A DNA stretch of 56,023 bases, counting the filler, from Catajapyx aquilonaris (Eukaryota): assembly GCA_000934665.2 (NCBI GenBank). It is 2 parts of 2 records of this genome, joined end to end, with 100 filler letters (N's around TTAATTAATTAA, not from the genome) between each part and the next. Parts side by side here need not be neighbours in the genome. Positions count along the whole stretch, not along the records: positions 1 to 27,966 come from JYFJ02004974.1; 1 more part is not named here. One strand, given 5' to 3'. The position numbers were made by a program, and so were the translations under genes. The notes beneath the pieces were generated by a model. That model was not told the DNA's origin, ran no database searches, and saw only the letters and a program-made list of their open reading frames with translations. Shown here piece by piece: positions 9,961-43,001 of this stretch. Numbering within the stretch: position 1 is the stretch's first letter; the number at the start of each line of letters is the position of its first letter.

Positions 9961-10644
9961 ATGAGCCTTCCCAACCGCCAGACTAAGCGTAAGTAGTAAT
10001 CACGTGCTGTATAGGTATTCGTAATGAATTTTATGTCCATATTTCAGTGAACGAGTTGGGATCTTTGTCATCTGATCCTGACATGGGCAACAGGCAGGGA
10101 AACAAGGCTGGAGCTGCCGAGACCAAGCCGGAGGACAAGGAAGATCCGCCAGCAACAACACCAGAGGTCCCAGAGGACAAGAAGGATGCTCCTGAGGAGA
10201 AGCCACAGGAGGAACAGGTGACGAAGGATGCCCAACCGGAGGCTCCAGAACCTACCACCACTGAAGAACCTGTGAAGGAACAGGCAGCGGACACACCCGT
10301 TGCAGAACCAAAAGACGAACCAAATGAAAAGCCAAAGGAGGAGGAACCAGAACCAAAGAGCGAACCCGCAAAGGAAGAACCAAAGGACAGCGAACCTCCG
10401 AAGGAAACTCCTGAAGAAAAGGCGCCAGAGGAGCCCGTAAAAGGTAAATATAACTTTTAAGTCTAATTGAACACTACTAATGTGGATTTCTCTTTGCACA
10501 GAAGAGGCTAAGGAAGATGACAAAATTACGGAGGGTTCGTCCGAGAAGAAGGCTGAGGAAGGAGACAACAAGGGCTCCGAAGGCGCCGAAGATCAGCAGC
10601 AGGCCGCTGAGAAGCCTTCAGATGGTGCAGAGAAGCAAGAATAA
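9961..10644 (+). CDS. Acidic Glu/Pro/Lys/Ala-rich intrinsically disordered protein (BASP1/GAP-43/MARCKS-like composition), 188 aa from ATG 9961 or 167 aa from the MG start at 10083
   Basis: Exons 9961-9988 (C|gtaagt), 10048-10443 (G|gtaaat) and 10502-10644, with 59- and 58-nt introns, join in frame: MSLPNRQTKLNELGSLSSDPD-MGNRQGNKAGAAETKPEDKEDPP...EEPVK-EEAKEDDK...AEKQE*. No Cys or aromatic residues. AATAAA at 10760-10765. The family label rests on composition only. Confidence 0.85.
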
Positions 10645-10877: not shown

Positions 10878-11650
10878 ATGGAAAGACCCTGCTGTGACTC
10901 TTGCAAAGGTAATTTAACTTGACTAAAGATGCATTGTACACTCATCATGTGAATAGCACAAATGGGGAACTTGGCACAAACATAAAGCAGTGCTAAGTAG
11001 GTCGAATGCCAGACCTACAATGCTCATTCAGAATATTGAGCAGAGCAGTTGGTTCATGTAATCAATGTAATTATGCTAGTTCAACACGACACTAAAAGCA
11101 CACTGCATTGCAGGTATAGTGGGGAAACTTCTTTGCTCTATTTGTCAACAGCCCCAAACTTAACAACAAATCAAATGTGCAGTGTAACTTGGCCTAGCAA
11201 CCTTTCACTGCATTTACAAATCAAACAAATTGATTTCATGCTTTGATTTCTGGACAGCGGCTGGATGTTTGGGAAATGCAGCCCTGGGAAGTTGCGCTTG
11301 TGATGGGGGTTGTGGGTGTCCTGGTGACATGTGCCAGTGTTGCCCCGACCCTGGGAGCCAGCCCCAGGACCAAGGAAAGCCAGCTGGGGGTGGAGGCTGC
11401 TGCGGATCCGGACCCAAACCTGGGCAGACGGCTAACAAGCCAAAGGGAGGTGGTTGCTGTGGAGGAGGATCCGGAGCCAAGTCAACCAAGGGTACGGATA
11501 TCCCTAGTTTTTCATTCCAATAATAATCTCGTAATTCCAAAAAGTGCGATTGACATGTCCGGTTTTGTGATTAGCATAGGCTTATCACTGTTGCAGCCCA
11601 TTAAAAATGGCTCATCTCGATTCATTTCAGGTGGCTGTTGTGGCCATTAA
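10878..11650 (+). CDS. Metallothionein-like protein C, 94 aa, 17 Cys: 11-Cys MT domain plus Gly/Lys/Pro tail with three GGCCG motifs
   Basis: Exons 10878-10908 (31 nt, G|gtaatt; same size and phase as MT-A exon 1), 11258-11491 and 11631-11650 give MERPCCDSCKAAGCLGNAALGSCACDGGCGCPGDMCQCCPDPGSQPQDQGKPAGGGGCCGSGPKPGQTANKPKGGGCCGGGSGAKSTKGGCCGH*. The Cys order CC-C-C-CxC-CxC-CxCC-P is identical to MT-A. AATAAA at 11755-11760. Confidence 0.85.
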
Positions 11651-12182: not shown

Positions 12183-15100
12183 TCAAATGTTGAGGGCGTC
12201 TTCTGAATCTTCAGAATCCGCGATTTGGCTGTCTTCGTGTTTGTCTTGCTTCTTCCTGCTGAACAACTTTCCTTCCACTCCAGTCTTGCGGATGCTAAGG
12301 ATTGGGTGCATAGCAGAGCGCAGGCTCCAAAACAGCTTAGGGAAGAGAACTTCCTGCTGGGCAAGTAGTTGCTTCACTCGATGCCTCTCCTGTAATGAGA
12401 AAAAGTGAAGCATTTTTAAACTCATGTTCATGACAACGCATGCTAATGTGTCAGTCAGAAAAGTTTGCATATTTTATCAGCAGTCATGTCTGAATTGACA
12501 GATGTCACTGCTGAAACTTTACTGGGCATGCCTGAGCTAGGAGCAACACTTGCATGTTTTTTCCATCCATATTAATGCTGCTTGAGGCCACGGACTGTGA
12601 TTGAACATAATCTAGATTTCTTTTGAAACTAGAATGTTCTATTATTTACTGGTTGTAACAATTAAGGGGGCCCATTAGCAAAAAAATACGGCAACAATGC
12701 GAGCCCTTGGCGATCACGTAAACAAACTCGCGTATGCATGGACAGCATATGGGGATTCGACATGTCTATGCTTCTGTGGCCATGTGGCCACAAAAATGGA
12801 GCAATGGACACAAAAATTACACCAAAAAATAAGACATGATCTGGCGCATGGCACCAGCATCGTCATTTTACCATTTTCGGATTAGAAGTGACCTTTTCAT
12901 CGAGTTGAAGTGAAAGGAAAATGGCGTTCCCGAGAAGCCCATCTGAATAACATGGCGGCAGGAAACGCGACAAAGTCGGGAACGCTTCTGTGCCCATATG
13001 TCCACAATTTTAATGCAATCATATCGAGTATGGTACCATAGTAAAGGTCAAACCTTTGCGCAGGGCACCTTCATCGTGATTTTTCCGATTAACGGTGCGT
13101 TTCGCCACAAAAAATAAAATTCCCTCAAAAATGCGCCTTCTGCCAAGTCTGCTTCTGTACCTACTTGAACCCAGAAAATTACTAGTTGGCATGGTAATGC
13201 ATCACACAACAATGGTTCCTGGACAAAGAGATCCAGAAGCAGAGTAAAAGTCACTCTAGACGAGGTCTTAAAGTGCTTGCGGTACCCACAGAGGTGCCAT
13301 TGGCCTTTAGGTAACATTTCAATAAATGTGAAGTATAACTCCAACAACAACTTCAGATACACTAAAATGAATCATGCTGCATTCAAACGCTGCAATTTAC
13401 ACATTCATGAGTGTAAAAGTTGCAGCTTTTGAGTGCTAGATTCACTTATGGATGGTAATAAGCATCTGGCATCTGGATGAGGGTGGCTTTAGAGGAAAAT
13501 GGCCTTTGGAATAACAAATATCTGGTGGGACATTTCACAAACTTTTACCGTAATCTTATCAGGGGGAGTCTAACAAAGACTAATAAAGAAACTCATCCCT
13601 CACGTGTATTGACAAAAACCTACTGGTATAGAGCTGCTCCACTAATTAGTTGCTATCCAGTGTTACCAAGTTGATAATCTGATTTTATTGTCAACTAGCA
13701 GGTTACCCAGCGTTGCCCGGGTAAGTTATGGTGGTAGGCCTACAATGTAATGAGGGCATTACCATGGAAATCTATGAATATTGTTAAATAGGTAATTGGC
13801 AATTGGTTAATTGGGAATATGCGTGTTATGGGTGTTAGGTTCATTTTCGGAAGCTGAAACATGCGGCATTAAATTCCTTGAAAAATGTAACTCCCGATAT
13901 GCTAATTTAAGGCGGTGTAGGGGCCTTCCCCTGGATTTCTATAAGGGACAAACAAACTGACAAATTGACAAACTGACAAACTTCCTTATTTATAGAGATA
14001 GAGATATCGAGAAATTCTCTTGGAACCCCCTGTCTCGTCATGTAGGTCTAGCCTGGAAATTTGCCAATTCGCAGTGGTTCTCAAAGTGCATTCAGCAGCA
14101 CATTGCTGGATTTTGGATTGCGAACTGACCAAAAATTCAAATTCTTCAGATTCAGATTTTTCGGATAAGAGGTCAAAGTATAGAAGTGGAATCAAGGGGT
14201 TAACCACTGAGGCGCTCTAAAAATCGACCGTAGTTAACAAAGTTTCACAGGTTTTTACACAAGCATGCGCTACTGCAAAAAAAACTGTCATAAGGGGTAC
14301 AAGCAGTGCGAAATGTGGGAGTGCTTGTCCTACCCTACGCTTAGCATTCCAGTGCCACCATAGCTTACAGGCCCCTGTCCACACTCTACCAACCTTTCTA
14401 ACCCAACCTACCCCTGCACTCTGGACCCATCTCACCCGTGGATGATAAGGCCAGAGACAAAGTAGCTGGGAAAAATCCTCCCCTAACCAACAAATCAATA
14501 TCCCATGGCTGAACCCAACTTTGGCCCCTGTCACTACGATGGGGAGAATGCCTGAGCTTGGGACCGAACCCAGGACCCTTACATCCGTGGGCGCATACGT
14601 TACCGCAGCGCCACTCCATCTCCCACTACTTGCAGACATACCTGCCTGGTGAATGATGCACTAAACTTCTACACACCCGAACATCTGAAACCCTTTCTTC
14701 ACAATGGCATGTACGCTTCCTCTTCCCATGTCACAGAAAGTTAATTACCATATCTTAAGAATGCCAGATAAGGCATAACAAAAGGTGTTTTCGGCTTAAG
14801 CAATCCTTTCTTTTGTTATTTTTATTCCCAGAACAGCAGATTGCTGCTTGCATTTCTAGTTAACCCCTTCGCTACCAGCTACGCCGAAAAAGCCTAGATT
14901 TCAGCCAATCTAAAGATAAAGACAAGATATTTACCCATTCATGGAAAACACTATCAATGTGTTGCAAACAATTTTACTCCTCTAAAAGTCCCTAAATTAA
15001 TCTCCAAAAAGACCGCCTTAAAAACTCAACTCAAAGAAGAACTGTTCGGAAGATTTAATTATGAAATACGCTAAAATATAGAGAACAACAACCTTGAGAA

Positions 15101-18100
15101 CCATGCCAGAGGAATTTGCTGAAATCATTGTACTTTGCGAGAAATAAATTAATACAGGTAAAATCTCGTTACCACGAAGCCTGCAGGACCGGGCAAATCT
15201 TTTCGTAATAACGGAATTTCGTTAAATCGAGATTGGTTATTTTTATTTCCCCCGCAAGTATGACCGAATCTGTCAACTCCTGGCACACATGTACGTCGTC
15301 ATCTGCGGCTACAAAATTGTGAAAGGTAACTTCATCCGGCATGCTGGTGCTTTCAGTGTCGGACCTCCACAGGTCGTCAGGGTCATCTGAGTCTTCACCT
15401 TCCTGGTCACTCCCCAAAACCAACACTGCCGACCCCTTAATGCAACTTCTACCCCAACATTTCACGATTGTTGACGGTGTTACGGACGACCACACACTCG
15501 CTTATCGCTAGACAGTGCTGGAGCACATGTGGCGGAGCATTGCACTAGAACATATTTCGTTATATCAAGATCAATACTAGCCAGGGATCCACCCTTCGTA
15601 TTCGTTGTACTGAAAATGTCGTAGTAACGCATTTCGTAATAACGGGATTACAAATACATTGCTCTTACAGCTGGCCAACCAAAATTTTATTTTTATTGCG
15701 TTCTATTGAAGTTTCGTTGTATTGGTATTCGCTAAAACGAGATGTTACTGTACTTATTTGTGGCTTTTTTACACTTCGGAAAACTCCCAAATTGATTTAC
15801 TTCTCGCTAAGTGTCAAAAATTCGCATATAAGTAGGCTATTAATATATTTCACGCAGAGTACGTGATTTCAGCAAATTCGTCTGGCGTGATTCTCAAGGT
15901 TGTTGTTCCATATATTTTAGCGTATTTCATAATTAAATCAACCTAATTAACAATTGGCCGGTAGTACTCTGATTTCAAGTTTTTAAGGCGGTCTTTTTGG
16001 AAATTAATTTAGAGACTTGTAGAAGAGTAAAATGATTCGCAACACATTAAGTGTTTTCCATGCATGGGTAAATATACATAGCTGTTATTACTGTATTTGT
16101 AAAATATGTTGTCTTTATCTTCGGAGTAGGCTTAAGCTGAAATCTAGGCATTATCAGCCTAGCTGGTAGCGAATGGCATTTCTCAGAAAAGCCATGCATG
16201 GTGTTAAAGATAATTACGTGTTGAGATAAGATAGGATGAGTAAGAGTACTGAAACAATTGTCAAGCCAACATGTCCAACACATTAGCTCTTTCCTTAGCA
16301 ATTCCAGATCCAGGCCTCAGGGGAAGGATGTGGCAATGAGGTTGAGATGGATGTGTCCGTGATCATGAGCAAGGCATGAAGTCATATCAAAGCTATTTTT
16401 ACAAAAGCATCATAATTATGATAACAATGTGTAAGTTTTCCTATGACACGCTCTGGAACGAGATTGTGACAGTGTTGTATCATTAGGTTCTTGGCTCCAT
16501 CAGCATCAATAAATTAACACATTTTGCTGCAAATAAAATATTACTCCTTATGACATTGCCAGTAGAAGTTTCCTTCCTATTTCAATAACCAACAGTTAAT
16601 GAACTTATCACAACTTACTGTGGGAGCCTCAAAGCAGGCAGGACAGTTCTCTGGAATGATCGGCAGCTTTCTGGACTCTGCAAACTGCCTCAAATTCTTC
16701 TCCCTCACATATGCAAAGGGTCGTATCACTCGCAGATCTCCCTCCCTATAAATATTAACAACCATGAGTGTCGATTAATGAATGGGCCATAAAACCGGTC
16801 ATAAAAATGTGTTGCCAACTGATGACAATGTTACTGACATCACTGTGTAGTGGGCCTTCATGGTGCGCAAGCGGCCATTATGGAAGACAGACATGAAGAA
16901 ACTCTCAGCAAAGTCATCAAGATGCTGGCCCAAGGCGAGGACATTGTACTTTTCACGTCGTGCTGCATTATAGATGCGTCCACGCTTCATACGGCTGCAG
17001 AAGCTGCATATTGAGGTGCACTCGGGAAGGGCAGCAGCTTGCTCCAGTATCCCTGAAACAAAACAACAAAAATGATGATTTTGCGACTTACTTCAGACTA
17101 TTCTACATGGCATATCTAATCTCATGATGCCACTACTCAATATATTATCCAAAATTAAAACCATCATACCTTGTTCCTCATAAAAGTAGGGGATGTCTAA
17201 GCTCTTGAGGTAGGGTATCAGTGGACTAGGGTCATAAGCAGAGCTCTTGGGATCCACCGTGATGGCCCCCAAAGTGAACTTAACATCTCGGGAAGATGCA
17301 CTAAACTGGTACTGATGCAATGTATGAAGCAGCGATAAAGAGTCCTTCCCACCCGAAAGGCACACCAACACACGGTCTCCATCTTGAATCATGCGGAACT
17401 CCTGAATGGCCTGGAAATGGTAAAAAACTGGTTAGTGAAATCTCTTGCTATAACAGCATCAATACGCTCACATCACAGATTCTTCAAGTGCCTTACAAAG
17501 TACACATACTCCAATTTTGAAGAATTCCTAGTGACGTCAATACCACTGCTGATATTCATTGCCTGGAAATTTGCTTCCACATCAACGCACTGTTCCAGCA
17601 AAATTAAATTGTTTAAAAATAATTTAATTTGCTCGAATTGAAGAATTCTTAATAAATACATCTCCTTCCCTTCTGCCTGTGGCTCAAAGTAGTGGCTGTT
17701 GCACTGAATTAGTTACTCTCTCTGGAACTTTAAAAAAATTGGAGTATAGCTGAATGATCTCTCAAAATTTCTCACCAGTTAGACACATGCAAAACAGTTC
17801 ACATCACTGTAAACTGAATAAAGCGTTTCATCTACAGAGATTAATGCGGAATTACCTCCCACGTAGGCTTGAGTATGTTCTTAGGTGGATGACACCAGCT
17901 ACTCTCTCCACTGCCAGTGACGCCACCCAAACTCCTGCGTCTGGAGCAAACAGGGACATCCTCCCTCTGCTTCTTTCTCTTTTTCTCTTCCTTCCTCTCT
18001 TCCTTTTTCTTGTCGTCTTTCTTTACTTCCTTTGGCAATTCCAAACTTGAAGTGGATTCCACATCCAGCAGCCCTGTGCAGTGCAGATCAATTCCACTGT

Positions 18101-21100
18101 CCCTTGAATCCATTGTGATCCTGCCAATTGGGATGTTGCTATTTCCATCTCTCTCTGTGTTATCTGGGCCATCTAAAAACACACTGTCCATTGAGGATAT
18201 CACGCCCTTTAGTTCCTCCTTCACCTCACTAGCAAGCTCCTTTGACACTTCCACTAGTATCTCTGCTACCTCTTCCATCTTTAGGGTGGAATCTTCCCGA
18301 CTTAGGCGAGCTAGAAATTAAAAATTAAAAATTGTTATATATTATGTAAATTTCCCCTGTCGCTCCGACAGGTGTCATGGCAGTTGATGAATCACTTGGG
18401 CAAACACAAGTGTGGACACACTGACTGTACAGATTGCTAAACTCAGTTATAAATATACTGTCATTTCCCGTTATGTTCAATTAAATTTTCCTGACTTAAA
18501 AATGAGGCATAATCTACCATATCTGTAAAAGTTGAATTAAGAACTTCTATATCTTCCAACATCCCCATTTGCCAATTGAAACTTGAACAAATTCAATGCA
18601 AATTCGACAATTTCACACCCTGAATTAAGAAAACAGATAGGAAAAATAAAGTTTCACCTTTGTGTCCACTAAAAATTTCTCACTGCAATGAATAAATCAA
18701 TCCTGCAACAAATCCTTAGACAAAATGTGTACATTGCTCCTGTATCTCAGGTGAGGCATGTTTGCTTCAGTTTTAAGATGCTTCAAGAGAATAGATCAGT
18801 CAAGTTAAGCCAGTAAAACCCATAAATTATAAGGCCAACTTTTCTCTTGTGTACTCACATGACACAAAGTCAGCTCCATCATTGTCAGACAACATGTCCT
18901 CCACCCTTGAGATGACTTCCCGTATTTCAGACTTGAGTTCAGTGGCAATCTCATCAGTCATTTCCTTCACGTACGAGTCCAAGTCCTCTGAGGCGGAGAA
19001 GGATGATGCTGTGGACCTTGGGCTCCTCTTGCTCTCTGCAGCCAACACATGTGGTGTGAACACATATGGGATAGTCACTGGATCACTCTTTGGCACTGAC
19101 TGCATTGCTACTTCATCTCCCACAAAGATTGTCAAAGGCTGGGTGGTGGGAACTGCTTCATCCAAACAGGACATTGACAGATGCCGGTTTCTAAGTGGTT
19201 CCTTAGCCTGCAAATAAATAAAACATCTCTTTTCAAAAAAAACCATTTGTCGAAACATATTCCAGATATTTCTCAAACATTGTTATGCAAAGTGGGTGTC
19301 GAAATCTCAAGAGGAAATAATACAGAAATAACAGACCCTGGATGCAGGAAAATTTCCCCAGTTTAAAGTTTTTGTTTGGTCTCCCGATACATAATTTTCA
19401 TAATCTTTTTTCTGGCATATAATGGAAACTTGTTCATTTTTTAAATTGCGAAACTTAGATCCTTGGCTATGAACAGCCATTTCTGTGGCACAATTTCAAA
19501 AACATAGGCAATAACTTCATGTTTTTATTGCTAGATGAAAACCTCAAAAAATAAACAAAAGAAAGAGACAAGTTGGAACAGTACAAAACTTATTACAAGT
19601 CCCAAGGTGTCCATAATGCATTTCCCTCTTAGTCAGCATCAGTCTGAGATGAATGCTAAGTTTTGATAAGCTTAGTGGCCTGGTTACTCTTGGACCATTC
19701 ACAAAAGCACACCTTGAAGTCTACTTCAACATAAACCAATTTCTCATAAAAATAAGATTTCATGGAGAAGAGCATAATCGAAAGAAACTGGATAATATTG
19801 AAGCCTTGTTCCTGGATAAGAAATCTGAGCATCTCTAAATATCCAAACAACTCTCCTGTATAGCTAATCAAGTTTGTAAGCAGCAACTGAAAATTCATCA
19901 ATCCATACTGTAGCCCTGTCAGCCGAGCATGCATCTGCGACTGGAGATGGCAGTTCAAGAGGTATGCTCAATCCAGCAGGTGGAGTCCCCCCACTGCACA
20001 ATGACAGACAATTTCATTATTTACAATGCTAAAAATTGCCCCATGAGTTGTTTGAGTGAAAAATGTTGATGACGTTTGGCGGAAGCCATCTATGCTGAAA
20101 TCAGGTTAAGGTCTGCAGTATTTCTGTGAGAATTTTTTCCCCGTAGATAAGTGAGAAGGCAACCTAGACACCATATCATTTTGTGGAAGAGCACACCAAG
20201 CTCAGCAACAGAATATTTCTTCTCTATGGCCATATGTGTCACCTGTCATATCAACTTTAACTAAGTGGTTTTCTACAATTCCGTTAGCATGCAGCATGAA
20301 TTGCCACCTTCAAAGACGTGGACACTGAATGTTGTGAGTTCATGTCACAGAGATGGTTCAGGGAAAAAAACGAGATTTCAACTGACTTGTAAAAATTCTT
20401 CTGCAAACTTATTTTACCAAGTTTATTACCATAAAAGGTATTAATACCATGTAACGTTATTCCAGTGAGAACTGGGGCACAACAAAATTGCCTCTTTAAA
20501 TTATTTTAACCTCATGGTAGGACTGGATGCTATGGGAAGAAAATTCGATAATCTTTATTCACAGTCATTGCTTACAAATTTTTCCATGTGGTTATATTCG
20601 GGAGAAGATTCACAAGAGCGCAGCATTGCCACACAGAAAGAAAATTCATTGCCCTGTATGATGGATCGAGACCTAAGGAACAAGAGAGGGAACCTCTCTC
20701 TGGCTCTCTGCTTTGCATTCAACCAAAATTCTACTCCACTTGCATGGTGACCCAACTCATAGAGGATGTCCATTCAAATGTGGTCATTTGCACTTTTTAA
20801 ACTGTTGTTTTTAATAAATATCATTATCAATTTCTGCAACAAACTTCATGTGACATGTGCTGTAACTTTCCATACAACCCTGTAGCTGTAACTAAAAAGT
20901 ACTCACTGTTCAGAATGAGTATGGAGAATTTTCTATTATTCCTCCTTACACTTAAATTCAATAACGAATTTGTCTGCAGACTATTTCACATACATCGTCT
21001 GTGACAGCTCAGGACTACAAGTACAAGAAGACATCCCACTAACCACAGCTTCAATCTGGCTTAAAGGACATGCCAGTCATCGTCAAACATCACTTGCCAT

Positions 21101-24100
21101 CATGACAAGTAATTAGGCATGCATGGAATGGGCATCCATAACAATGTGAATACTTCCTGTACAGAAAAAAGGGCACATCATGCATCTGGCACTGTAATAA
21201 CATAAGACACAATGACCTAGACTCTTCTCAGCATAGGCATAAAACAACTGAAAGAAAATCTTACCATATGTGATCAGATTCAGTATGAGACATTACAGAT
21301 ACCACAATGCCCAAGTCAACGGGAGAAAAACCAGCCATATCTGTACTATATCTAGTATCATTTATGGCATAAGGTATTTAGTAAGTAATTCAAGTACACA
21401 TGCGGACCAGTTCTGCTTGGGTAAGCTTGTTAATTCTATTCAAGGGGTATGTGAAGATTGTGAACCATCTGCATCTACAGTAGGGCCTACCGGAAGCAAG
21501 GAGCCACTTGAAAAACGGGTACGAAGTTTGGCTCTCTTCTGAAGAGTCCCACCAGGTGACCAAAGCCTCACTTCAGCTGGGGACAATGGTGCTCCATCTC
21601 CAGGCAGTGGGCCAATCATGGAGTCTGGGGATGAGGAGGAGGGACGTAGGAGGTGATGGTGGGACAAGGTAGATGGGGACCGAGTTTCTGAGTATTTGGG
21701 GGGCATAAATGGTGAATGTGGAGGAGGAAGAGGAGAGGGAGGGGGGGACCACGCTGAGGATTTGAGAAGATAGTCCCGTGCTTCAGAAGGAAGAAGAAAC
21801 CACCGTAGTTCTGCAGCCTGCCCACTGAACAGGAGGGCCTGGTCTGGAAGAGGTAGGCGTTGGGCCATCTGAAAGAGTCGGCTGATGAGCAACGGGTATT
21901 CGCAAAATGTCATATTTCCTGAAATGCTGCCAAAATTCTAGAACTGTTGTGGTCATGCATTATTTTTTAGAGCGATAACTCCTGCTGCAGGACCTAAGAT
22001 TTATACTACAGCATTAATTTACTGGCAGATAATTAATGCACCTTAAAGGCTGGTTTATATTCGATTGTAAGGCTCTCTTCCACCTGATTTTGAGCTTACA
22101 CTATTGGAGCATAGCCCTCTTCCACCATGCAACTCAATTCTCTATGCCACTCCGAAATTTGAGGAAAGTTCAACAATATCTGGCCTATTAATATTGGAAA
22201 GGGCAGTCTTCAATCCCACATTTAATTGCACAAAATACTCCCAACTGCACCTTTTTGGCCTGCCTGAACACAATTTTGGCAGCCTCCAGACATTCCTCCA
22301 TTGTTTCAGGGGCTGGCTTTCCCTGCACCTTCGGTGGCACAAAATCCATCCCTTTTTCAGAGTAGTATATGGAGCCCAGCCACCTCCTCTCCTTGAAGAC
22401 AGCGTTGGTATGGTGTTTGAACTCTGCAGTCTCAGGATTGAACTGGTACTGGGGCAGAAGGGTCCATCCATCCTTACAGACCATCTTCACTGCCTGCAGT
22501 ACAAAGTTGGCCTCCTCATCGCTCATCATAAAGGGGAGATTGAAGCGAGAAAAGCCGGGGCGAAGGACCTCATGGGCTGAGTGTTCTTCTCTTCGGCGAA
22601 GGTGACTACGATCCAGGCGCCTGCACAAGTTGTTACGAGAGGCAAAAATTAGAGCACAACTCACAAGCTATCGATACATTTACTGCAGTTCTACTTCTTT
22701 AACCTAAAATAGTAAAATGGGCATCATTCAGATTCCCTATCTTATTTCTAAAATTATTATTTTAGGAAATTTGACAGATAATCTTGTGTTGACAAAATTT
22801 TCATTCTCTTGCATCCTTATCTTAATTTACCCAGTTTGAAAGGGTTATCAGCATGGTGCACAAACATATTGCACAATCCTTGATTTCGTGAAATATCATT
22901 TTGAAACAACAACATACACCTCTAAAATTTGGGTGTTCATCTACTATTGCTCCAAAAATTAAGAATGCAATTTCTACATTATCTGTTTAAATCCACATCC
23001 ACTTGAGGTTAGAAAATTTGGGATTTTTGTCACATTTTGGCCCCTGCATATCCACTGATTGTTGCACATTTGCAATTCCGGCTGTCACTTTTTCATTCAT
23101 ACTCCCATGCACCTGTTATACCAAAAATTTTAATGCCCTAAGCAGGGATGGTGGAGTGGTGCAGCATTAACACTCGCACCAATGGATTGAAATGTCCCAG
23201 GTTAGATACCAACCCTGTGTAATTGCAATGCTTTATAAAATACATAAATGGACTAAAACAGCCGTAAAAACATGTGTAACTGTATGTCAAAGAATACATT
23301 ATAATTTTACCGAGATTTAGCATTTACTAGATTTTCACCATAGGATAAGTTTTGCCTGTGAAGCAAGAAAGAGTAAGAAACCTCACCCATCTTCCAGAAG
23401 CAATGCTTCATACTCCTTCGCTAGATCCACGCCAATTCCAAGAAGGTCCTGAGCATATGGGCCAGCACACGCACACCCTCCTCTCGTTTGTATCCCAAAC
23501 AAGTCGTTAAGTAGTGCACACACATAATTATAATGCAGGTATCTCCCTGACTCCTCATGCTGCACCAAAAAGGAGAAAATTGGAAGACGTGGGCCCGAGG
23601 AACCACCGAGCAGCAGTAGTCCAGGCATGTCCTTCAATGCCTTCAATGCCTTCTGGCACAATACATCTTCTCGCTCCATGATAAATTTAGGTGTCACGCA
23701 CTCCTTCAGCTGCATCACCATTCCAGCCCTCACTGCTTCAACAATAGCTGGAGTCCCTCCTTCCTCTCGCATTTCCACATCACGCAGGTACCTATGCCCA
23801 TCTCGGTGAACAAAAAACACACTACCACCACCCCCACCATTAGGCACTGCATTCTGAAACAATTCCTTCTTGGCTACCAGCACCCCAGGTGTCTGTACAC
23901 CACCCACAAATTTGTGGCAGGAGAAGAACATGGCATCCTTGTCAGCAAGTCCCTGATGCATCCCAGGCACCTTAGGGTTCATGTCCAACTGAACATAAGG
24001 AGCAGCAGTAGCATAATCCCAGAAGGCAAGGGCACCATACTGATGGAGAAGGACAGTGGTTGCTACTTCATCTGAAAGGACTCCTGTGACATTGGAGGCA

Positions 24101-24799
24101 GCAGAGAAGCATCCAATCAACTGCCTTTCAGAGCCCTGGTGGAGCTTCAGCTGGTGCTCCAGGTCTGAGAGGTCTGTGGTGCCATCAGAGCTCTCTGAAA
24201 TTCTGACTACCTATTGAAAATAATATTTCTTAGAACATGAGGCGGAAACCGACTGAAATAATTAATTCAGCTTTGTATCATGTCAACAAGTTTCCAAATG
24301 GTCTTGTGCCCAATGAATATTGCAAACTAATTTGCTCAGTAACAGCCATTAAAATCACACCGCTTAAGATACAAGCAACATTAATGGAGGCAACGTATCA
24401 ATATGAAAAGGGAGGGTAGATAGAGACATGATCATTGTAACATCTGGAGTACCTTAGCACCAACATCCCGCCATGGAAGTAGGCTTGAGTGGTGCTCCTG
24501 GGGTCCCACAAATACGACAGGTGGAGATTTCCACCTTCCATTCCTGACACCAATGGCATCTAGCAGTTTATGGACAGCACCAGTGGCTCCACTTCCAGTG
24601 AACATTACTGCATCATGCTCAGATGCATGGGTGGCATTTCGTATGATCTCCCTTGCCTCATGCCTGAACAATGTGGTCTGCACAGATGTCACAGTGGTAG
24701 TGGTGTGTGTGTTTCCATAGCAGGGAAGCACCTCATCACGAATGAAGTCTTCTATAAAGCTCAGGGAGCGCCCAGAAGCAGTGTAGTCACAGTACAATA
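12183..24799 (-). CDS. Fusion protein: class-V PLP cysteine desulfurase-like domain + low-complexity linker + TtcA-like (tRNA C32 2-thiolation) PP-loop domain; ~1220 codons, first exon(s) not identified
   Basis: Phase-consistent GT-AG exons: 24799-24453, 24210-23387, 22620-22251, 21868-21491 (donor uncertain), 21055-20994 (tentative), 19993-19909 (tentative), 19207-18859, 18310-17856, 17410-17170, 17052-16839, 16745-16619, 12389-12183. N-terminal motifs: CDYTASG, NTHT, GSGATGA, EHHS, SAASNVTG, SCHKFVGG (PLP Lys), EEGGTP, RGGCACAG. C-terminal motifs: LSGGKDS, CSFCSRMKRGRIY, GQHLDD, IRP, ENCPAC, ERHRVKQLL. Confidence 0.85.
13695..14004 (-). mobile_element. Non-autonomous Helitron-like element in the last intron of the fusion gene
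   Basis: The minus-strand 3' end is CTAG|T at 13695, preceded by a GC-rich hairpin (ttacccagcgttgcccgggtaa, 13703-13724). A (ACAAACTG)n-like microsatellite and a TC start lie near 13950-14004. Confidence 0.6.
14864..16176. mobile_element. Long-TIR foldback/MITE (piggyBac-like TTAA-CCC left end) with ~290-340 bp diverged inverted arms
   Basis: 14864-15154 is the reverse complement of ~15838-16176 (e.g. ccaaaaagaccgccttaaaaact vs agtttttaaggcggtctttttgg; aacaacaaccttgagaa vs ttctcaaggttgttgtt). The left flank is TTAA; the right end is decayed. Confidence 0.7.
15155..15750 (-). mobile_element. Tigger/pogo-like DNA transposon deletion derivative nested in the foldback element
   Basis: TA-flanked inverted ends cag(g)taaaatctcgtt ... 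aacgagatgttactg. The internal frame (15495-15169) reads WSSVTPSTIVKCW...FHNFVAADDDVHVCQELTDSVI, typical of pogo/Tigger transposase C-termini. Confidence 0.7.
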
Positions 24800-27700
24800 C
24801 TGAAATGAAAAAGGACAATAACTTGTAGTGTCAGAGACAACATTTGACACAGTGATTCTGTACAGTACACTTGCTCATAAAAACAACAAAACAATGGCAA
24901 TAATTAGTGGCACTGACTGCACATGTCATCGTCATCATCATAAAGCCTCACAAGTGCTTGGTAATCATTCTGTTGCATTACCTCATGCTTGTTGACCTCT
25001 GGGTTACAAATTTTTAGCATAGCAAGCGCCAATTAACCCTTTTAAAATCGAAACGACTTTTTTTTTTTTTTTTGCTGCTGCTGCTGCTGCTATCACCATT
25101 ATTATTTTATTCATTAAGGGTGGAATTTTCATCCCTAAAAATTCCACTCTAAGTTTCCAAATCTCTCATACATTGGCTATAGCATTGTAAGCTACGCAGC
25201 AATGAAATGACAATATTCCTTCACCAGTACTCCATCATGCAGGCAATTCATCAAACTTGTACCCGTCAGGACCTGCCATCTCAGGTTTACTTTGTGACCG
25301 GTTATAACAGCACTCAACAGAGCGATTAGACTGAAAAGTGTCAATAACGCATGAGCCCATGAAGCAGACTGAAGTTTATTTTTTTAACGTCCCAACATTT
25401 TCCTCAGGAATCGTATTACATTTGTGACAGAATTTTCAGAACCCATTCATTTCGTGATTGCACCACAGACAATACACCATTATATCTTGCATTATACCAT
25501 ACTTGACCTGAATATAATGAAACATCTACTAATGATCCATCACAATGAATAACACCAGGGGATTACTAATGACAACCTGCTGAAAGAAACCTCATCCTCA
25601 CAAAATTACCAGACATTTCATCCACCTCTCTGTCAGTGGCAAATTGACGTGAAACCCCTGCAAAGAGACCTCCCTAATGAGCGTATATGTTGCCTGGCTC
25701 ATTTCCACCGGATTCCCTTGCAATTGCGTCGTTCTGAAACCTGCATAGCATGCACTCTTTTTCCACCCTCATAATTAAACCTGGCCCCCATCACGCCCAA
25801 CAGTGACATCAACGAGCCAAGTTCCCACGAGACAACCAGATCCCTTGGAATCCAAAAGATTTCTCTCACACACATGAGGCCCTGTCCTTGACAGCAAAAA
25901 GATAGGCTGTCACGTACACCAGTATGACATCACTATTTTTACGACCGGTCATACCAGACAAAGCAATGTCAAATCTGCAACTAAAAGGTCTCCTCACCCA
26001 GTTTTTTTTACAACCTATATGTGTGTGAGGCCCCTACCAGATATTTTGCATTGCATCTACGCATTCGCTAAAAATACAATTCTGCCAGCAGAAACGCAAA
26101 CAAACCTTTCTGCAATTCCCAGTGCAAAATCGTAAAAAAAAAGAACTAGACACGAAAGGTAGGCCACGACACGTAATCTCAATCGAAACTGACAACCAGT
26201 TCTCTCCACTGTGACTCCGCATGCAAATGTCTCTTACGTGATTAACCGGTTAAGGTGCGTACTTACAAATGTTACAAAAATTGTTTCTAAATATTAGTGG
26301 CAATGTACTAAAATGTAGCATTTTACAGTAGTAACACAAATTAACGTATGACCATTGTTGCCATATGTAAATGTCAGCAATGGAGCACTTTATAGCTAGC
26401 AATTGGAGATCCTTAGTTACGTAAAGGGTTCACCGGCATTCTGTAAACACCCGGCGTCTTTACACATTGGGATCACATGTAAGCTAACAGTATGACTCAA
26501 GCCAAAAAACTAGTCAGCGTCCAAGAATGATATTTCTCTTTCACGCCCCTCAAACTACCCGGGAAATGGGCCAAAACAAGCCCATTAATTTTCGTCCTTT
26601 GCCCTTCAAACTTGTTTGCTGGCCTGAAAATACTGTCCACTCATTTTAATGTCCTCCCTAACAATTGGCAGGTTCAAAGTACACCTCTGCACACATTAAA
26701 CTGTTTACAGACCCCGGTTCCCCCCCTTTAAGATAAGTCCAGATTAGATTAACCCGCATCCTCTTGCAAATGTATTTGTTATGGACAGTTCCGCAAAAAA
26801 AAATATACTGATTTATTTCACATTATTAAACCAGCAATGATGCAAAAATTATAATTAATAATAATGATCACAACTCTGGGAATCTGCAGATTTTTCCCAT
26901 AATTTATTAGTGTGCTTATTAATATTTTTCAAGTGTCGTTATAAACGTTTTCTTCTCGACTCGTATGCGCAAGTGCCATTCGTAGATATGGAAGAAATGC
27001 GTAAATTATACATCATTCAAGGTCGGTGTCAAGGGCGTCGATTTCCACGTTTGGTTACAAGCATTTCACTCGCAACATGAACGCATACAATTTAACAGAT
27101 GATTCCCCCTGCACCTTTATGTGGTCAGGGATGCTGTAACATCTGGGATAGATCATCTGGATACGCCATTGGATCGATGGACGACCACACTCTGACCTTG
27201 ACTTGGTAGACAACATTCACCCCCGGTCGTTTATGAGTTTTCTGCTTACGCATTCAGCAAGTGGAGCAAGTGGAAGGGTAGCAGGTGCCATTTGCAGTTG
27301 GGAATAATGCTCAATAAAGCCGTCATTCTGTAGCCAAGCCACTGAGATAACATGCTAATATATCACTAGCTTAGTTTAGAAACTATTTTGGCAGAAGGCC
27401 AATGTGGACGAATTTTGCACATTTTTCATCGGTGCAGAATGGATAATAGAAATAGGCCTCCAGGGGTTTTCTTCCAAAGTAATATAAATGTGGTCACTGC
27501 TGCGACATCCACAGGCAGATGAAAATTCAATGCAGCTCACATTGGATGCGGAGTCACACCTCTAGTCATATGTGACTAGAATCAATGTAAGCAGTTTCTA
27601 TCTGCCATTGTATTCCATTCTTTACACATAGGCTGCACCATGGCAGGACTACAAAACACATTGTGGGATGTCACTCAACTTCACCTCAGGTGTTTCCACC

Positions 27701-27966
27701 TTATGCATTGTCAGTCCACTGTGTTTATTTCTTTCCCTACAATCCCACAGTTTCAGCATTATCTAAGAGAAAAAAAACACATGCGAAGCCAGATATTGGC
27801 ACGCTTGTTTTCCTGTGACACTAAAAATGTGAATGTACTGTTCGCAGACACCCACTTCCTGCAGGCAATCATCTAATACATATTTCCAGACCTATATCTG
27901 TCTGTCTGTCTCTCTGTCTGTCACCTAAACAGATCGATACGGAGGCCTCCACATATGCCCCATGGG

Positions 27967-28066
27967 NNNNNNNNNNNNNNNNNNNNNNNNNNNNNNNNNN
28001 NNNNNNNNNNTTAATTAATTAANNNNNNNNNNNNNNNNNNNNNNNNNNNNNNNNNNNNNNNNNNNN
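27967..28066. other. Artificial contig-joining linker (44 N + TTAATTAATTAA + 44 N)
   Basis: Exactly 100 bp and symmetric; the central 12-mer gives stops in all six frames. Confidence 0.95.
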
Positions 28067-28074
28067 GGTCACTC

Positions 28075-29613
28075 GTGGAGGAGGGAGAGGTCCATCGAGT
28101 GATGACCTCGCCCCCTGCCAGTGCCCTCAGGCTGAAGGTGGCCAGTCGGATGGAGGAAGGTGGGCAGTTGAAGGTGGAGACTGTCTGCTTCTTCTGCGCG
28201 GAAGGGGGTCAACCCAAGGTCATCGATCTTGGAGATGTGAACCATGCTGACAGATCAAAAGTTGATAGCTTCTTCAGAAACTACGACACAAACAAGATGA
28301 ACAAGAAACCAATTGTGCGTGGGATGTACTTGTTTGGAGCAGACATGGAGGACGTTCGAAGGAGAAAAAAAGAACTGGGAGAAGTTTACCTCAAGTGTTA
28401 CGAACGGGCTTACATCCTTGGCGAGGAAGGGAGTAACTATTTCACTTCTGAGATTTACGTGAAGGAACCGACTAGTACAGATTTGGACCACAGACTGAAC
28501 AACGGCACTTGGGTGGGACTGACTCCTGATCTGTTGTCAGGACGAGTGGATGCGATAGGTTTCTTGCCATACACGGAGGACTCATATCGATACACCCTCC
28601 TGACTCATCCCTTCATTTACGGACACGTAACCTTCGCCACAAGGAGACCCGGAGGAGTGATCAGCTGGAGGGTGATCTACAGGCCCTACGTCCTCCCCTT
28701 CTGGTTGTCCTTGGGGGTCACCCTGGCCCTCCTCCCCATCGCGATGGGCAGCCTCTCCCGCTGCGACCCATCTCGAGGGAGGTCAGAGGTCGAAGGGCAG
28801 CGACTGACCCTGCTGGGATCCCTCCACGTCCTGGCCAGACACCTGGTAGAACAGCCCGTTCCCTTCCCCACATCCCGCCGCTTTCTCTTCCTGGCCTCCT
28901 CCTTCCTCTTCTTCTCCACCGTGGTCATCACTGGCTACAAGGCCAAGATGGTCTCCTTCCTTACCTTCCCCCCGAGGGAGTTTGTCCCGAGGAACTTCAG
29001 GGAACTGGCGGAATCCGACTGGACCATTGAAGCTGACATGATCAATTTTCTTCTCTGGAAGAAATACCTCTCCTTCGTCGACGATCCTTTCTACCACTCC
29101 ATTGATGCGAAGATGATCATGGGTGACAGTATCCAGAGCTGCCTGGAGAAGATGCATAGAGAGCAACTCGCCTGTGCGGGTGTCAATCTACTATTGGATC
29201 TGGAGATTTACCTCTTTCGCGACACTTCTGGGCAGCCAACATTCTGTTACTCCTATGACCACATATTTCCGAGTTACAGTGGATCAAGTTTCCCCCGTGG
29301 ACAAACCATGACGTATCATATCGCAAAGACACTAGCGAGATTTGTAAATGAAAATGATATGATAACAGCTATGTTTCGTGACTACATGTACCTGATGTTC
29401 CTCTGTTCCTTGGATCGGATCCGGGCCAGGGAGAGGGACAACCCCCAAAAGGCAGAGGAAGTGTTGACCAGGACAAAGCTCACCGTCATCTTCAACATGT
29501 GGTTGGTTGGACTGGCCATTGCTCTGGGTGCATTTGCAATGGAAATCTTCATTCGCAAGAAGTGTGGTGCGAAAGGGAGAAGCCTGAGAGAGAGAAGACC
29601 AGCCATCCTCTGA
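28075..29613 (+). CDS. Divergent ionotropic receptor (IR; variant iGluR chemoreceptor), intronless, probably 5'-truncated by the gap
   Basis: A 512-codon frame open back to the N-run (first ATG 28102). It has an S1 motif NGTWVGLTPDLLSGRVDA...LTHPF, pre-M1/M1 RPYVLPFWLSLGVTL, M2 RRFLFLASSFLFFSTVVITGYKAKMVSFLTFP, an S2 start FRELAES and a terminal TM VIFNMWLVGLAIALGAFAMEI. Confidence 0.88.
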   Translation: MEEGEVHRVMTSPPASALRLKVASRMEEGGQLKVETVCFFCAEGGQPKVIDLGDVNHADRSKVDSFFRNYDTNKMNKKPIVRGMYLFGADMEDVRRRKKELGEVYLKCYERAYILGEEGSNYFTSEIYVKEPTSTDLDHRLNNGTWVGLTPDLLSGRVDAIGFLPYTEDSYRYTLLTHPFIYGHVTFATRRPGGVISWRVIYRPYVLPFWLSLGVTLALLPIAMGSLSRCDPSRGRSEVEGQRLTLLGSLHVLARHLVEQPVPFPTSRRFLFLASSFLFFSTVVITGYKAKMVSFLTFPPREFVPRNFRELAESDWTIEADMINFLLWKKYLSFVDDPFYHSIDAKMIMGDSIQSCLEKMHREQLACAGVNLLLDLEIYLFRDTSGQPTFCYSYDHIFPSYSGSSFPRGQTMTYHIAKTLARFVNENDMITAMFRDYMYLMFLCSLDRIRARERDNPQKAEEVLTRTKLTVIFNMWLVGLAIALGAFAMEIFIRKKCGAKGRSLRERRPAIL

Positions 29614-40300: not shown

Positions 40301-43001
40301 AAATACCCACTAAAAATCCGAGAATAGTATACGGATTGCCACAATATTATTCTAAAATGGCAAAGACACAGCCCAACTGCGCAATGAATCGCATTCAATA
40401 TGTCTTCTTGAGTGGTGGTAATATAACTAAAGGATTACATCAGCCATACCTGATGAGATTTCCCACCATTGAAAGTATTTTCTTCAAAAAAAAGTTTGGA
40501 AACTTGTTAAATGTATTGCGCATTAGCAGGGTCATTTCTTGTGCTTAAAATTAACGACTAGACATCCTTCCATGTAAAAGGGCAGCGTTTTATTGATTAA
40601 GAATATATTGCATCCTCATATCGAATATATTAATATTTAACAAAAACTAACACAGCGGCTTTCCTCATTCATAAAAGTCTGGCCAATAATTATGGCGGTG
40701 AATAAATTGGACTACTTGCCCACTCAAAATGCAGCCCCAGTTTGCTCGAAGATCGTATTTCGCCAAATGGAGCATTGGCAGTGTAAGTTGTAGTTCAGGA
40801 GGGCTGCCTGTCCAACCATCGTCAAAAGGAAAGCTCATTCCACACGTCATGAAGACCACAAAATTGCAATTAAAATGCTACGGTGCATATGACGTAAACA
40901 ATACGTGCAGCAGATGCACATCGACAAATATCTCACACCTCCTATCGGCTTCCCTGCAGTGAAACTTCAGGGTTGTGCATCGTTCTCACCAATAGGGTTT
41001 AACCCGTCATTAGAAACAAATGTAAGTACAAGGTTATGCAACAGTAAAATTATCATGAAAAGTTGCCTGATGCAAGAATAACACGATGTCTCTCGCAGAA
41101 CATCGGAGATTACCCGTAACTACTGTCGGGCATGTCTGATTGAACTGGAAATAACCAGGAAACCTGTGCTACAAGTTCCCTACTTCCGATTAGCCTACTG
41201 GACAGCCAAACCAGCAAAGAACGAGACGATAACCAGCCGATGACCGACTCCGACCCAAGTGGCACTGACCAGGCTGCACCACACACATCATACGTGAGTA
41301 AATACATCTAGATATTGTATCAATAAATATATTAGAATTGATTTTTTATGCAGGGAGTAATGATACCTTGATATTATTTGTCTTGTGCTGAATTGAACAA
41401 CGTAGATCTCAGTGAGAATCAAATTCCGACCTAAAGAATCTTCATAAATCACCTTATCAATTGCAAAACAATGAATATTATTCCACATTCATAAACTCCA
41501 GATTTGGAAGGCCTCTACTTTCTACTGAATTTAGCCTTATAATCATTCCAAAGGCAAGTGCAACAGAAAGTAGTCAGAGGTGGCCGAAGGTCTAGAGACG
41601 CTCTGCACATCAGAAGACAACAAATAGAGCCGCTTGACCTAAATTTTCGTATGACAATCAAACATCTCAGATCACCTACAATCAAAAAATGTATGTGAAG
41701 ACAGAAGTAATGCATGAAAATGCCTGTAAAACATTACCGCACTAAAATGTATAAGACTATCATTCAAATTCCATATAACGCCCATTTAAAAGTGGCTAAC
41801 ACGTCATAATTATAATATGTACTATCCTGCTGTAACGCTGAATAGTAAATCAATGTTGAAGCTTGCAAAAAATCTGGCAAGTTTGTGGGTTGGTATTGTT
41901 GTGCACTCACATTGATCAGTGCAACATGCGGCCGGCTGCTAATTGGAGACACAAAGTATCATGAGACAAAACTGACAGTGAAGCGAAATGAATGCAAATG
42001 CAACTTGTTCAATTATTAAAACGCTTGCGTGCAGGCCTTTGAACTATATAACTGTTCCCTTGGGGTTGGTAGATCCAAAGTGACTTGCAGATTCCTTCCG
42101 AGAATGCTTCCCGACCTGATCATAGACATAGACGTATTTCCAGGTTAAGGACAACTCACCCTGTATGATGCATAATGAATATTTGAGGGAGACTATGAAT
42201 GACGAAAGAGGACCATCACATTACAAAGCACATTGAGGAATCAATGCTATAAAAAATAAGTGTGATACGCAGTAAAATGCGGGCACACCACCATTAGCAT
42301 TTTCTAGTATATAAAAAGCACTCACCCTCATAAGGTCCTGTTTCCTTAGTGAGAAATACGAAAGTGTGGACCACCACCCGCGGAAATATTATCAAACTTA
42401 TACAAAAACTCTCGTCTCCCTCACCTGAAATCAACATCGGACACCGACCTTGGATTAAGTGATGCTCGTAAACGGGTGTCCGACTGACAGAGTGTGGTGC
42501 ACACCAGGCGAGAGAGATAATCTACGTTGTCTTGTGCTCGTGGTCTCACCTTGCACATTGAACACAGGAGATAAGGGGCTATACGAGAGAGGGAAGGGGG
42601 GGAAAAAAACACGTATACCTTCCCTGACAACCCACCCACCTACCAACTCACACCAGGGTGACCTGGCCCACTTTCCACATTTCCCCCATTTGACCTCTCA
42701 TGAATCATGCGCTGTTTCAGACAACAATGGTTGAAGGCCAACAATTATTATTCACGACACTGACACTAAACCATCCAGGAACAAGTTTCGATAAAAGATC
42801 AGAGATTGTTGATTCAAGATTGTTGCTAATTATTATTGCTGACTCAACAATATCATTATCTCGGCAGGGTTTGGTCTGATATTGTTCCACCATAATTAGG
42901 GAGCCTCTGCGGACACAATATTGATTCATTTTACTGATATCAATAAAATACTTGGCGGCGATATGGTAAGTTCAACTTAGGGCATTAACCATGTAGGTGT
43001 T

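Follow-up and report, generated by a model that had tools for sequence, protein, structure and literature searches.

A predicted gene of Catajapyx aquilonaris that joins a SufS-type cysteine desulfurase module to a TtcA-type thiolase module

Could one animal protein both draw sulfur from cysteine and place it in tRNA? The question is raised by a locus in the genome of Catajapyx aquilonaris (GenBank assembly GCA_000934665.2), within a stretch of 56,023 nucleotides that we call the window (two parts of two records of this genome, joined end to end with 100 filler letters between them; positions 1 to 27,966 come from JYFJ02004974.1). On its minus strand, from 24799 down to 12183, an initial annotation made from the sequence alone described an animal gene in which a cysteine desulfurase is fused to a bacterial-type TtcA, and proposed that sulfur donor and thiolase are hard-wired together in its product. 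The analysis reported here establishes the structure of the gene and the identities of its domains, and shows that its catalytic residues are conserved and that the fusion is widespread. A bifunctional enzyme that supplies its own sulfur for 2-thiocytidine at tRNA position 32 (s2C32) is the best-supported reading, and we think it probable; the two activities, the direct hand-off of sulfur and the tRNA substrate are predictions.

Gene structure

The gene was first outlined from stop-to-stop frames and Pfam scans. The window has 2816 minus-strand frames of this kind, 28 of them of at least 100 codons, and six of the eight longest are exons of the fusion gene. Pfam Aminotran_5 matched two pieces (24432-24830, E 1.2e-07, and 23383-24210, E 2.7e-21), while ATP_bind_3 gave weak matches to two more, 17093-17431 (17.2 bits) and 16799-17092 (23.4 bits), both below its 27-bit cut-off; six other long open pieces had no Pfam match. 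Read base by base, the junctions have AG acceptors and GT donors at all ten exons, which when joined from 24799 to 12183 make 3431 nt, that is 1142 codons and a single terminal TGA with no internal stops. The earlier claim that the exons join in phase into one open reading frame (ORF) thus holds; the landmarks noted at that time (24799, 23387, 17410, 12183 and a stop near 21440) all match this model, and the motifs SCHK, RGGCACAG, SGGKDS, CSFC, GQHLDD and CPAC were all located in the frame. Along the polypeptide, a SufS-type cysteine desulfurase module that uses pyridoxal 5'-phosphate (PLP) is followed by a linker of about 310-315 residues and then by a TtcA-type PP-loop/[4Fe-4S] thiolase module (N-module and C-module below). 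The exons and their landmarks are as follows.

24453-24799, minus strand: E2, the first recognisable exon; opens with 2 bases of a split codon; acceptor TTTCAG, donor AAG/GTACTC
Content of E2, minus strand: LYCDYTASGR ... EHHSSLLPW (24497-24471), N-terminal part of the SufS-like PLP domain; Aminotran_5 E 1.2e-07
23387-24210, minus strand: E3, core of the PLP domain with the Schiff-base lysine motif SCHK and the invariant Cys-Ala-Cys loop RGGCACAGP; Aminotran_5 E 2.7e-21
23922-23911, minus strand: SCHK, in E3
23484-23458, minus strand: RGGCACAGP, in E3
22251-22620, minus strand: E4, closes the SufS-like small domain (LRPGFSR, 22565-22545) and opens a C-terminal extension specific to the family; matched by 8 of 8 homologues in tblastn
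21572-21868, minus strand: E5, end of the N-module (LRWFLLPSEA, 21808-21779), then without a stop the linker, Pro/Ser-rich at its start
18859-19207, minus strand: E6, linker with twin motif 1, YVKEMTDEIATELKSEIREVISRVEDMLSD (18973-18884); acceptor TTTGCAG, donor CAT/GTGAGT, phase 1
17856-18310, minus strand: E7, linker with twin motif 2, EEVAEILVEVSKELASEVKEELKGVISSMD (18275-18186), DSGIDL (18101-18084), a Lys/Glu-rich stretch and WCHPPKNILKP (17897-17865)
17170-17410, minus strand: E8, PP-loop ATP-pyrophosphatase motif SGGKDS (17356-17339); NCBIfam TtcA model NF007972 66.2 bits, TtuA 21.2
16839-17052, minus strand: E9, central CSFC (17008-16997) and GQHLDD (16930-16913); NF007972 71.7 bits, NcsA 15.3
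16619-16745, minus strand: E10, C-terminal CPAC (16645-16634); NF007972 33.5 bits
12183-12389, minus strand: E11, C-terminal helices and an acidic tail; TGA at 12185-12183; acceptor TTACAG; matched by 8 of 8 homologues in tblastn

The phases of E6 and E7 match (T + CT, giving Ser), and the E7 donor GAG/GTAATT leads in phase 0 into E8. For E9 the donor GAT/GTCAGT was picked, which restores the TV.EG spacing of the homologues; an alternative E9/E10 junction (TCA/GTAACA with a GGGAG acceptor) was dropped, as it loses a conserved Glu and its acceptor is poor. The in-frame stop at 21442-21440 lies beyond two in-phase donors, GAA/GTGAGG at 21572 and CCG/GTAGGC at 21491; either donor keeps the frame, and the stop is reached only if both are skipped. 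Because E5 holds the end of the N-module together with the start of the linker, and E7 holds linker together with the lead-in to TtcA, the exon structure ties the two halves to each other. Eight full-length fused homologues, from hemichordates, amphioxus, a bivalve, a sea anemone, a crinoid and a sponge, all run colinear with the window in tblastn, on the minus strand and through both halves (per-exon E 1e-106 to 1e-9), a colinearity that by these scores is far beyond chance. We take the interval to be an intact, spliced gene that codes for protein, from a hexapod-like arthropod; its product would be one polypeptide of at least 1142 residues.

The split codon of which E2 holds only two bases calls for a further exon upstream. 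The homologues have about 70 conserved residues (RKFY.LP ... YI..NVIG...F.GPFG.RKV) ahead of YCDYTASGR, and the lack of this N-terminus belongs to the sequence available here rather than to the fusion family. A profile hidden Markov model run against every six-frame ORF of at least 12 residues gave a best E of 7.9 for this exon, and motif scans of the window together with an ATG-to-phase-1-donor scan of 24831-27960 found nothing credible. Candidates near 33850 and 26400 contain stops, have E > 0.4 and were set aside. Two 44-nt runs of N (27967-28010 and 28023-28066) are too short to hide a whole 5' exon.

The ratio of observed to expected CpG (CpG o/e) is 0.20-0.40 in all eight 1-kb bins from 17001 to 25000, exons and introns included, compared with 3 of the 48 other bins at ≤0.40; it is 0.30 in the 2.4-kb intron between E5 and E6, 0.32 in the exons and 0.65 on average in the flanks. 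If gene bodies are methylated in this animal, as we assume, the trough fits one methylated transcription unit that takes in desulfurase, linker and TtcA exons alike. The trough ends near 25000, which could mark a methylated gene body with a promoter near 25-27 kb.

The two modules and the linker

A phmmer search of PDB sequences with E3 matched 40 distinct sequences, 38 of which are named cysteine desulfurases of SufS, CsdA or Nfs2 type (best match SufS 8d8s, E 2.3e-13). The other two are 4w91, named 'Aminotransferase' but listed as Brucella SufS in a structure search, and 4lw2, a cysteine sulfinate desulfinase. HMMER alignment to the solved SufS chains places EHHSSLLPW of E2 on (v/m)EHHAN(l/i)VPW and SCHK on SGHK/SSHK, and it sets RGGCACAGP column for column on RAGHHCAQP, so the second loop Cys takes the position of the SufS catalytic cysteine. 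The PLP lysine and a Cys loop at the place of the SufS persulfide loop, both proposed in the initial annotation, are thereby confirmed. Invariant in all 37 aligned fused proteins are both loop cysteines, HK in the lysine motif and HHS in EHHS, and so are the columns of SGGKDS and of the C-CSFC-CPAC arrangement.

The top NCBIfam model for the N-half exons is sufS (TIGR01979), IscS models are absent from the NCBIfam matches of the window exons at E up to 0.01, and on the fused homologue P0010 the IscS model TIGR02006 scores 23.5 bits compared with 121.6 for sufS. An AlphaFold2 model of a tick-like relative (P0014, 947 aa, built with a 37-sequence alignment) has a mean predicted local distance difference test score (pLDDT) of 76.4 and a folded N-module at residues 47-644, and Foldseek run on it gave solely SufS-type desulfurases among the matches listed (TMt 0.75-0.82). 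Judged by these alignments and models, the N-module is SufS-type (group II) rather than IscS-type, and apparently a SufS-like family of its own. Like the group II SufS/CsdA enzymes (E. coli SufS, B. subtilis SufS and Arabidopsis Nfs2), it has their fold and carries EHH.N..PW, S.HK and R.G..CA.P in register, but unlike them it has a G-C-A-C loop in place of H-H-C and an extra extension of about 150 residues, and it scores far under the sufS cut-off. The extension follows the small domain (E4-E5, to LRWFLLPSEA) and is confidently folded in the P0014 model; searches of Pfam, NCBIfam and PDB sequences gave it no counterpart, and a Pumilio match to E4 (E 0.11) was dismissed. The fused desulfurase is not known to have a SufE or SufU partner.

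The C-half was described at the outset as TtcA-type, without the flanking zinc fingers of CTU1, Ncs6 and TtuA, and that description stands. Over 238 residues the joined model shares 35% identity with TtcA of E. coli K-12 (E 4e-45); SGGKDS aligns on the PP-loop, CSFC on C122/C125 and CPAC on C210/C213 (RefSeq numbering), and the PP-loop and all three cluster cysteine positions are retained. The TtcA model is the best of NCBIfam for the three core exons (66-72 bits for E8 and E9, compared with 15.3 for NcsA and 21.2 for TtuA), and no CxxC zinc fingers flanking the PP-loop domain were found when the translated model and its Cys positions were read; the module thus sides with TtcA and not with CTU1. 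CTU1/Ncs6, NcsA and TtuA share with it the superfamily and a central CxxC...C cluster site, but the zinc fingers are theirs only. E. coli TtcA (b1344) likewise has the PP-loop SGGKDS, central and C-terminal CxxC pairs and no terminal zinc fingers; unlike the window protein it stands alone, scores 514 bits on NF007972 and is very distant from the fused C-modules in our tree. By sequence the PDB holds no TtcA structure, and the entries nearest to the C-module are NcsA 6scy and TtuA 5gha. We file the C-module as a putative TtcA-like sister subfamily rather than as the enterobacterial equivalog.

According to the available portions of Bouvier et al. (PMC4081106), the [4Fe-4S] cluster of E. coli TtcA is held by three cysteines numbered 122, 125 and 222, sulfur comes from the separate enzyme IscS, and persulfide sulfur is proposed to pass to the free site of the cluster. 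The P. aeruginosa equivalents given in the available part of PMC6082896 are C115, C118 and C206, the last being the second Cys of the C-terminal CxxC, so that Cys222 of the E. coli paper presumably corresponds to RefSeq C213. The numbers 46, 200, 219 and 222 in PMC4081106 stand beside 45, 191, 210 and 213 in NP_415860.1 (L001:7014-7949), and 122/125 agree. The C-module should bind [4Fe-4S] through its CSFC pair and the second Cys of CPAC.

Relatives of the fused protein were sought with E3 among longer proteins; 6951 of 8000 candidates matched at E up to 0.001, and the best 120 of these are considered here. BLAST of the window linker against them matched insect linkers (E 1.8e-20 to 1e-14), and the matches fall on two related motifs, YVKEMTDEIATELKSEIREVISRVEDMLSD in E6 and EEVAEILVEVSKELASEVKEELKGVISSMD in E7. 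An iterated profile found this pair in 31 of the best 120, all 27 named matches being insects; no match came from the 51 non-insects that are named, and both of the named insects lacking it are N-only fragments. Colinear islands common to the window and an alignment of 28 insects are PF.P..Y..R (E5 tail), DSGI(D/N)L (E7) and W.CPPK.I.KP (E7 end). The linker exons are by this measure coding, since insect linkers are matched down to E 1.8e-20 and in the same order; hexapod linkers appear to be under constraint, and the twin motifs are hexapod-only among the relatives listed. For the most part the linker is predicted to be disordered, as is that of P0014 in its model (residues 645-680). The fold of a full-length insect relative (P0088; mean pLDDT 41, predicted template modelling score 0.32) is too poor to use; it draws the twin motifs as two long helices (736-769 and 810-841) at a pLDDT of only about 50.

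Relatives, origin and surroundings

The initial annotation supposed that similar architectures might be annotated in other invertebrates, and they are abundant: precomputed Pfam puts PF00266 and PF01171 on one protein in 99 of the best 120 of the 6951 relatives, from animals and protists. The arthropods listed are hemimetabolous and palaeopteran insects, crustaceans and chelicerates; the others are molluscs, a brachiopod, an annelid, echinoderms, hemichordates, amphioxus, cnidarians, a sponge and protist transcriptomes. In precomputed Pfam a protein of Phytophthora has PF00266 alone, yet it contains an SGGKDS stretch. Many of the fused relatives lie on contigs of 3-5 kb nearly filled by their ORF, which we read as transcript assemblies and hence single mRNAs (for example P0014, 947 aa on 3164 nt, 85% identical to an Ixodes protein). 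Named proteins among the best 120 include none from Holometabola, nematodes or vertebrates, which is not evidence of absence. Among the matches listed, the best database identity of the window is 68% and mollusc relatives are about 59-65% identical in E3; the C-module is 76% identical to its termite counterpart. A tree of the E3 region (57 rows, the window and 56 of the 120 relatives, all of them named; the 64 omitted were unnamed or redundant) places the window as sister to all 16 insects (ultrafast bootstrap/SH-aLRT 95/82) inside a pancrustacean clade (99/97), in agreement with the earlier statement that the gene is an animal's. Taken with the linker motifs confined to hexapods, this placement and the 68% identity indicate a hexapod outside the insects or an insect lineage that branched off very early.

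Nine relatives of 490-570 residues have the desulfurase module only (P0044, P0045, P0065, P0066, P0075, P0086, P0097, P0112 and P0113). Eight of them begin with Met followed by RKFYDL, and all nine stop at one point in the extension, just past ETGEW.HH, a pattern that hints at short isoforms, or at a paralogue standing alone, in some taxa (crustacean-like ones).

Bacterial relatives were collected by scanning one genome per prokaryote species with the patterns RGGCACAGP and C[SA]FCSRMK, taken from the alignment of fused proteins; this gave 477 relatives, of which the best 80 loci were kept. Thirty-eight of the 80 match the N-module only, at 39-46% identity; they are stand-alone proteins with the exact RGGCACAGP from Chloroflexota, Actinomycetota, Deinococcus and the Alphaproteobacteria (Rhizobiales and Rhodobacterales), and some of the matches continue through the extension to residue 615-632. 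The other 42 match the C-module only, at 50-57% identity, and are its closest prokaryotic relatives: TtcA-like proteins of sulfur-oxidising Gammaproteobacteria (Thiothrix, Thiolinea, Thiofilum, Halothiobacillus and metagenome-assembled genomes of Chromatiales) and of Francisella, which have C[SA]FCSRMK in common with the window but stand alone at 255-280 residues, with an N-module homologue within 6 kb in 0 of 42 loci. Both modules lie within 6 kb of each other in none of the 80 loci. Two halves with different, unlinked bacterial relatives suggest that the fusion arose in eukaryotes.

On the TtcA model the TtcA-like proteins of Gammaproteobacteria reach 211-222 bits, compared with 514 for E. 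coli. Five of the gammaproteobacterial genomes have no TtcA-type gene besides this relative, as would be expected of a TtcA orthologue rather than of a gene with a side function. A tree of C-modules groups the eukaryotic ones as one clade (SH-aLRT 87) nested in gammaproteobacterial sequences, with the window among the arthropods (95); its 43 rows are the window, 19 eukaryotes picked so as to be widely spread, 22 of the 41 bacterial ORFs and E. coli as the sole distant outgroup, so the direction of descent is left unsettled. The neighbourhoods of the 80 loci hold no conserved sulfur-acceptor partner. An Lrp/AsnC regulator adjoins the N-module homologue in 18 of 38 loci, and a lipid A acyltransferase adjoins the TtcA-like gene in 23 of 42; we take these neighbourhoods as synteny, not function. 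The tRNA-modification gene mnmG (gidA) adjoins the N-module relative in eight Deinococcus loci (including L013, L030, L037 and L044), which may be mere synteny within one genus.

Several other features lie in the window around the fusion gene or inside its last intron.

28015-29613, plus strand: intronless frame of 532 codons, ionotropic-receptor-like in look, with a weak Lig_chan match (22.9 bits, below the 30.8 cut-off); it lies on the other strand, upstream of the fusion gene, and its 5' end abuts the N runs at 27967-28010 and 28023-28066
41894-46067 and 47954-51209: tandem segmental duplication with four families of direct repeats of 175-300 nt, 96-99% identical and 5142-6061 nt from start to start
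45363-45758 and 50511-50852: frames with a common peptide tail
9993-10460 and 11188-11523, both plus strand: low-complexity frames just past the 3' end of the fusion gene, with no Pfam match; one is acidic and Pro/Glu/Lys-rich and begins MGNRQGNK, the other is Cys/Gly-rich, and they may be exons of one neighbouring gene
15001-16000, in the 4.2-kb last intron (16618-12390): highest CpG o/e of the window, 1.19
15169-15501, minus strand: acidic frame of 110 codons in the last intron, with no Pfam match; it may be a young insertion

Function and competing explanations

If the fused protein works as its motifs suggest, the PLP domain would take sulfur from L-cysteine and hold it as a persulfide on the second Cys of the invariant GGCAC loop, where the neighbouring Cys, two residues away, might relay the sulfur or aid its release. 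The open iron site of the TtcA cluster would receive the sulfur next, either in cis or from the partner chain of a dimer, while the PP-loop would adenylate C2 of cytidine 32 in cytosolic tRNA; the cluster-bound sulfide would displace AMP and so leave s2C32.

A full-text literature search found one paper that describes the fusion, a preprint (bioRxiv 10.64898/2026.09.27.754811) on an Aplysia 'IscS-TtcA' protein and the first eukaryotic s2C32. In its available text, s2C32 is mapped in tRNA-Lys(UUU) and the fused gene is named as the candidate enzyme: LOC101861551 of Aplysia californica (1177 aa, CsdA and TtcA-like domains), identified by BLAST, with RNA-seq coverage across its exons and, again by BLAST, no other TtcA homologue in Aplysia. 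The same source reports the fusion in 28 mollusc species, and in insects and birds as data not shown. Like the window protein, the Aplysia one has a desulfurase-like domain, a poorly conserved linker (405 aa in Aplysia) and TtcA, with the PLP Lys, Cys-x-Cys, SGGKDS and the C-CSFC-CPAC arrangement. They differ in that the Aplysia gene is molluscan whereas the window's is an arthropod gene with hexapod-only linker motifs, and the available text calls the first domain IscS and does not identify its catalytic Cys, whereas here the domain is SufS-type and the second loop Cys is assigned by alignment. As a novelty, therefore, the fusion does not survive, since scores of animals and protists have this architecture annotated and that preprint already describes it. 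The earlier suggestion of s2C in an animal, by contrast, now has indirect outside support from Aplysia. New here are the SufS-type assignment with its catalytic Cys, the hexapod linker motifs, the placement of the window as sister to insects and the lack of linkage between the closest bacterial relatives of the two halves; these additions leave the class unchanged, the gene being a new arthropod member of a widespread invertebrate and protist fusion family.

Several observations weigh against a bifunctional, self-supplied s2C32 enzyme. The N-half exons score only 76.2 (E3) and 26.5 bits on sufS, whose cut-off is 475, a value also missed by whole homologues (P0004, P0010 and P0015, 106-122 bits). 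The 272-bit cut-off of NF007972 is likewise reached neither by the exons nor by the same three homologues (195-203 bits), although it is narrow, being exceeded in 2 of 14 control genomes; the bacterial TtcA-like proteins nearest the C-module also fall below it and are uncharacterised. In the loop G-C-A-C takes the place of the H-H-C of SufS, and Thr stands at the Gln of SufS D-G-A-Q, so the desulfurase chemistry may differ from that of SufS. The interval 12183-24799 has no start codon and its frame is 5'-incomplete, tblastn with 59 homologue N-termini found no 5' coding exon in the 31 kb upstream, and expression as one mRNA in C. aquilonaris is a prediction from the gene model. The N-only products of other taxa make separate products possible in principle. 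As far as its available text goes, the preprint ties the nucleoside to the gene through homology alone and has no knock-down or enzyme assay ('knock' and 'RNAi' have 0 occurrences), in keeping with the earlier remark that no functional characterisation of the fusion was known.

Some of these points would suit two separate enzymes, made either from alternative transcripts (read-through to the 21440 stop, and an internal start for TtcA) or by proteolysis in the linker. There is indeed an in-frame stop after E5 if the donors are skipped, the P0014 linker is disordered in its model, cleavage is raised as a possibility in the available text of the preprint (bioRxiv 10.64898/2026.09.27.754811), and nine complete-looking N-only proteins occur among the best 120 of 6951 relatives. 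We nevertheless regard two products as unlikely: two in-phase GT donors precede the stop, E7 codes for linker and the conserved TtcA lead-in alike, the linker islands are conserved and colinear from the window to the insects, and 99 of the same 120 relatives are annotated or assembled as one protein. No poly(A) signal was found after either stop, AATAAA and ATTAAA being absent within 545 nt past the one at 21440, which is uninformative or at best weakly against a transcript ending there. A decaying or mis-assembled copy that has lost its first exon and is unexpressed would explain the undetected 5' exon, and the two 44-nt N runs at 27967-28066 could be cited for it, but 1142 codons without a stop or frameshift, intact catalytic motifs, canonical sites at every splice junction, a C-module so close to the termite's and a CpG depletion like that of transcribed, methylated gene bodies make it highly improbable; the first exons may lie outside the window or be in pieces too small to detect.

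The fusion could also be real and do something else, with selenocysteine or another amino acid as the substrate of the PLP domain, or another nucleoside, RNA or small molecule as that of the PP-loop. Both halves belong to divergent subfamilies under the curated equivalog cut-offs, the Cys-Ala-Cys loop and the Thr-for-Gln change are unlike characterised SufS, the Lrp/AsnC regulators beside N-module relatives suggest amino-acid catabolism rather than Fe-S or tRNA work, and the literature search found no assay of either subfamily. Set against this are the retention of all three cluster cysteines and the PP-loop, the standing of the TtcA-like relative as sole TtcA-type gene in five genomes of Gammaproteobacteria, which fits an orthologous role, and, in the available text of the Aplysia preprint (bioRxiv 10.64898/2026.09.27.754811), s2C32 in an animal that has this gene and no other TtcA homologue; a different function therefore seems to us improbable, and a bifunctional enzyme for s2C32 is preferred.

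A more ambitious form of this preferred reading is a self-sufficient cytosolic thiolation machine, in which the loop would hand persulfide sulfur or released sulfide to the cluster and so bypass NFS1-MOCS3-URM1, and in which the hexapod twin-helix linker module would dock or regulate the hand-off; we offer this tentatively, as possible but rather doubtful. The window did not open the question, as the family and the idea are already in the preprint and the databases. Should such a machine exist, s2C32 would be a widespread, overlooked tRNA modification of animals. If the fusion works as proposed, it would give animals a second cytosolic route to tRNA thiolation, apart from the URM1/CTU1 pathway, and would be the enzyme behind the newly reported eukaryotic s2C32.

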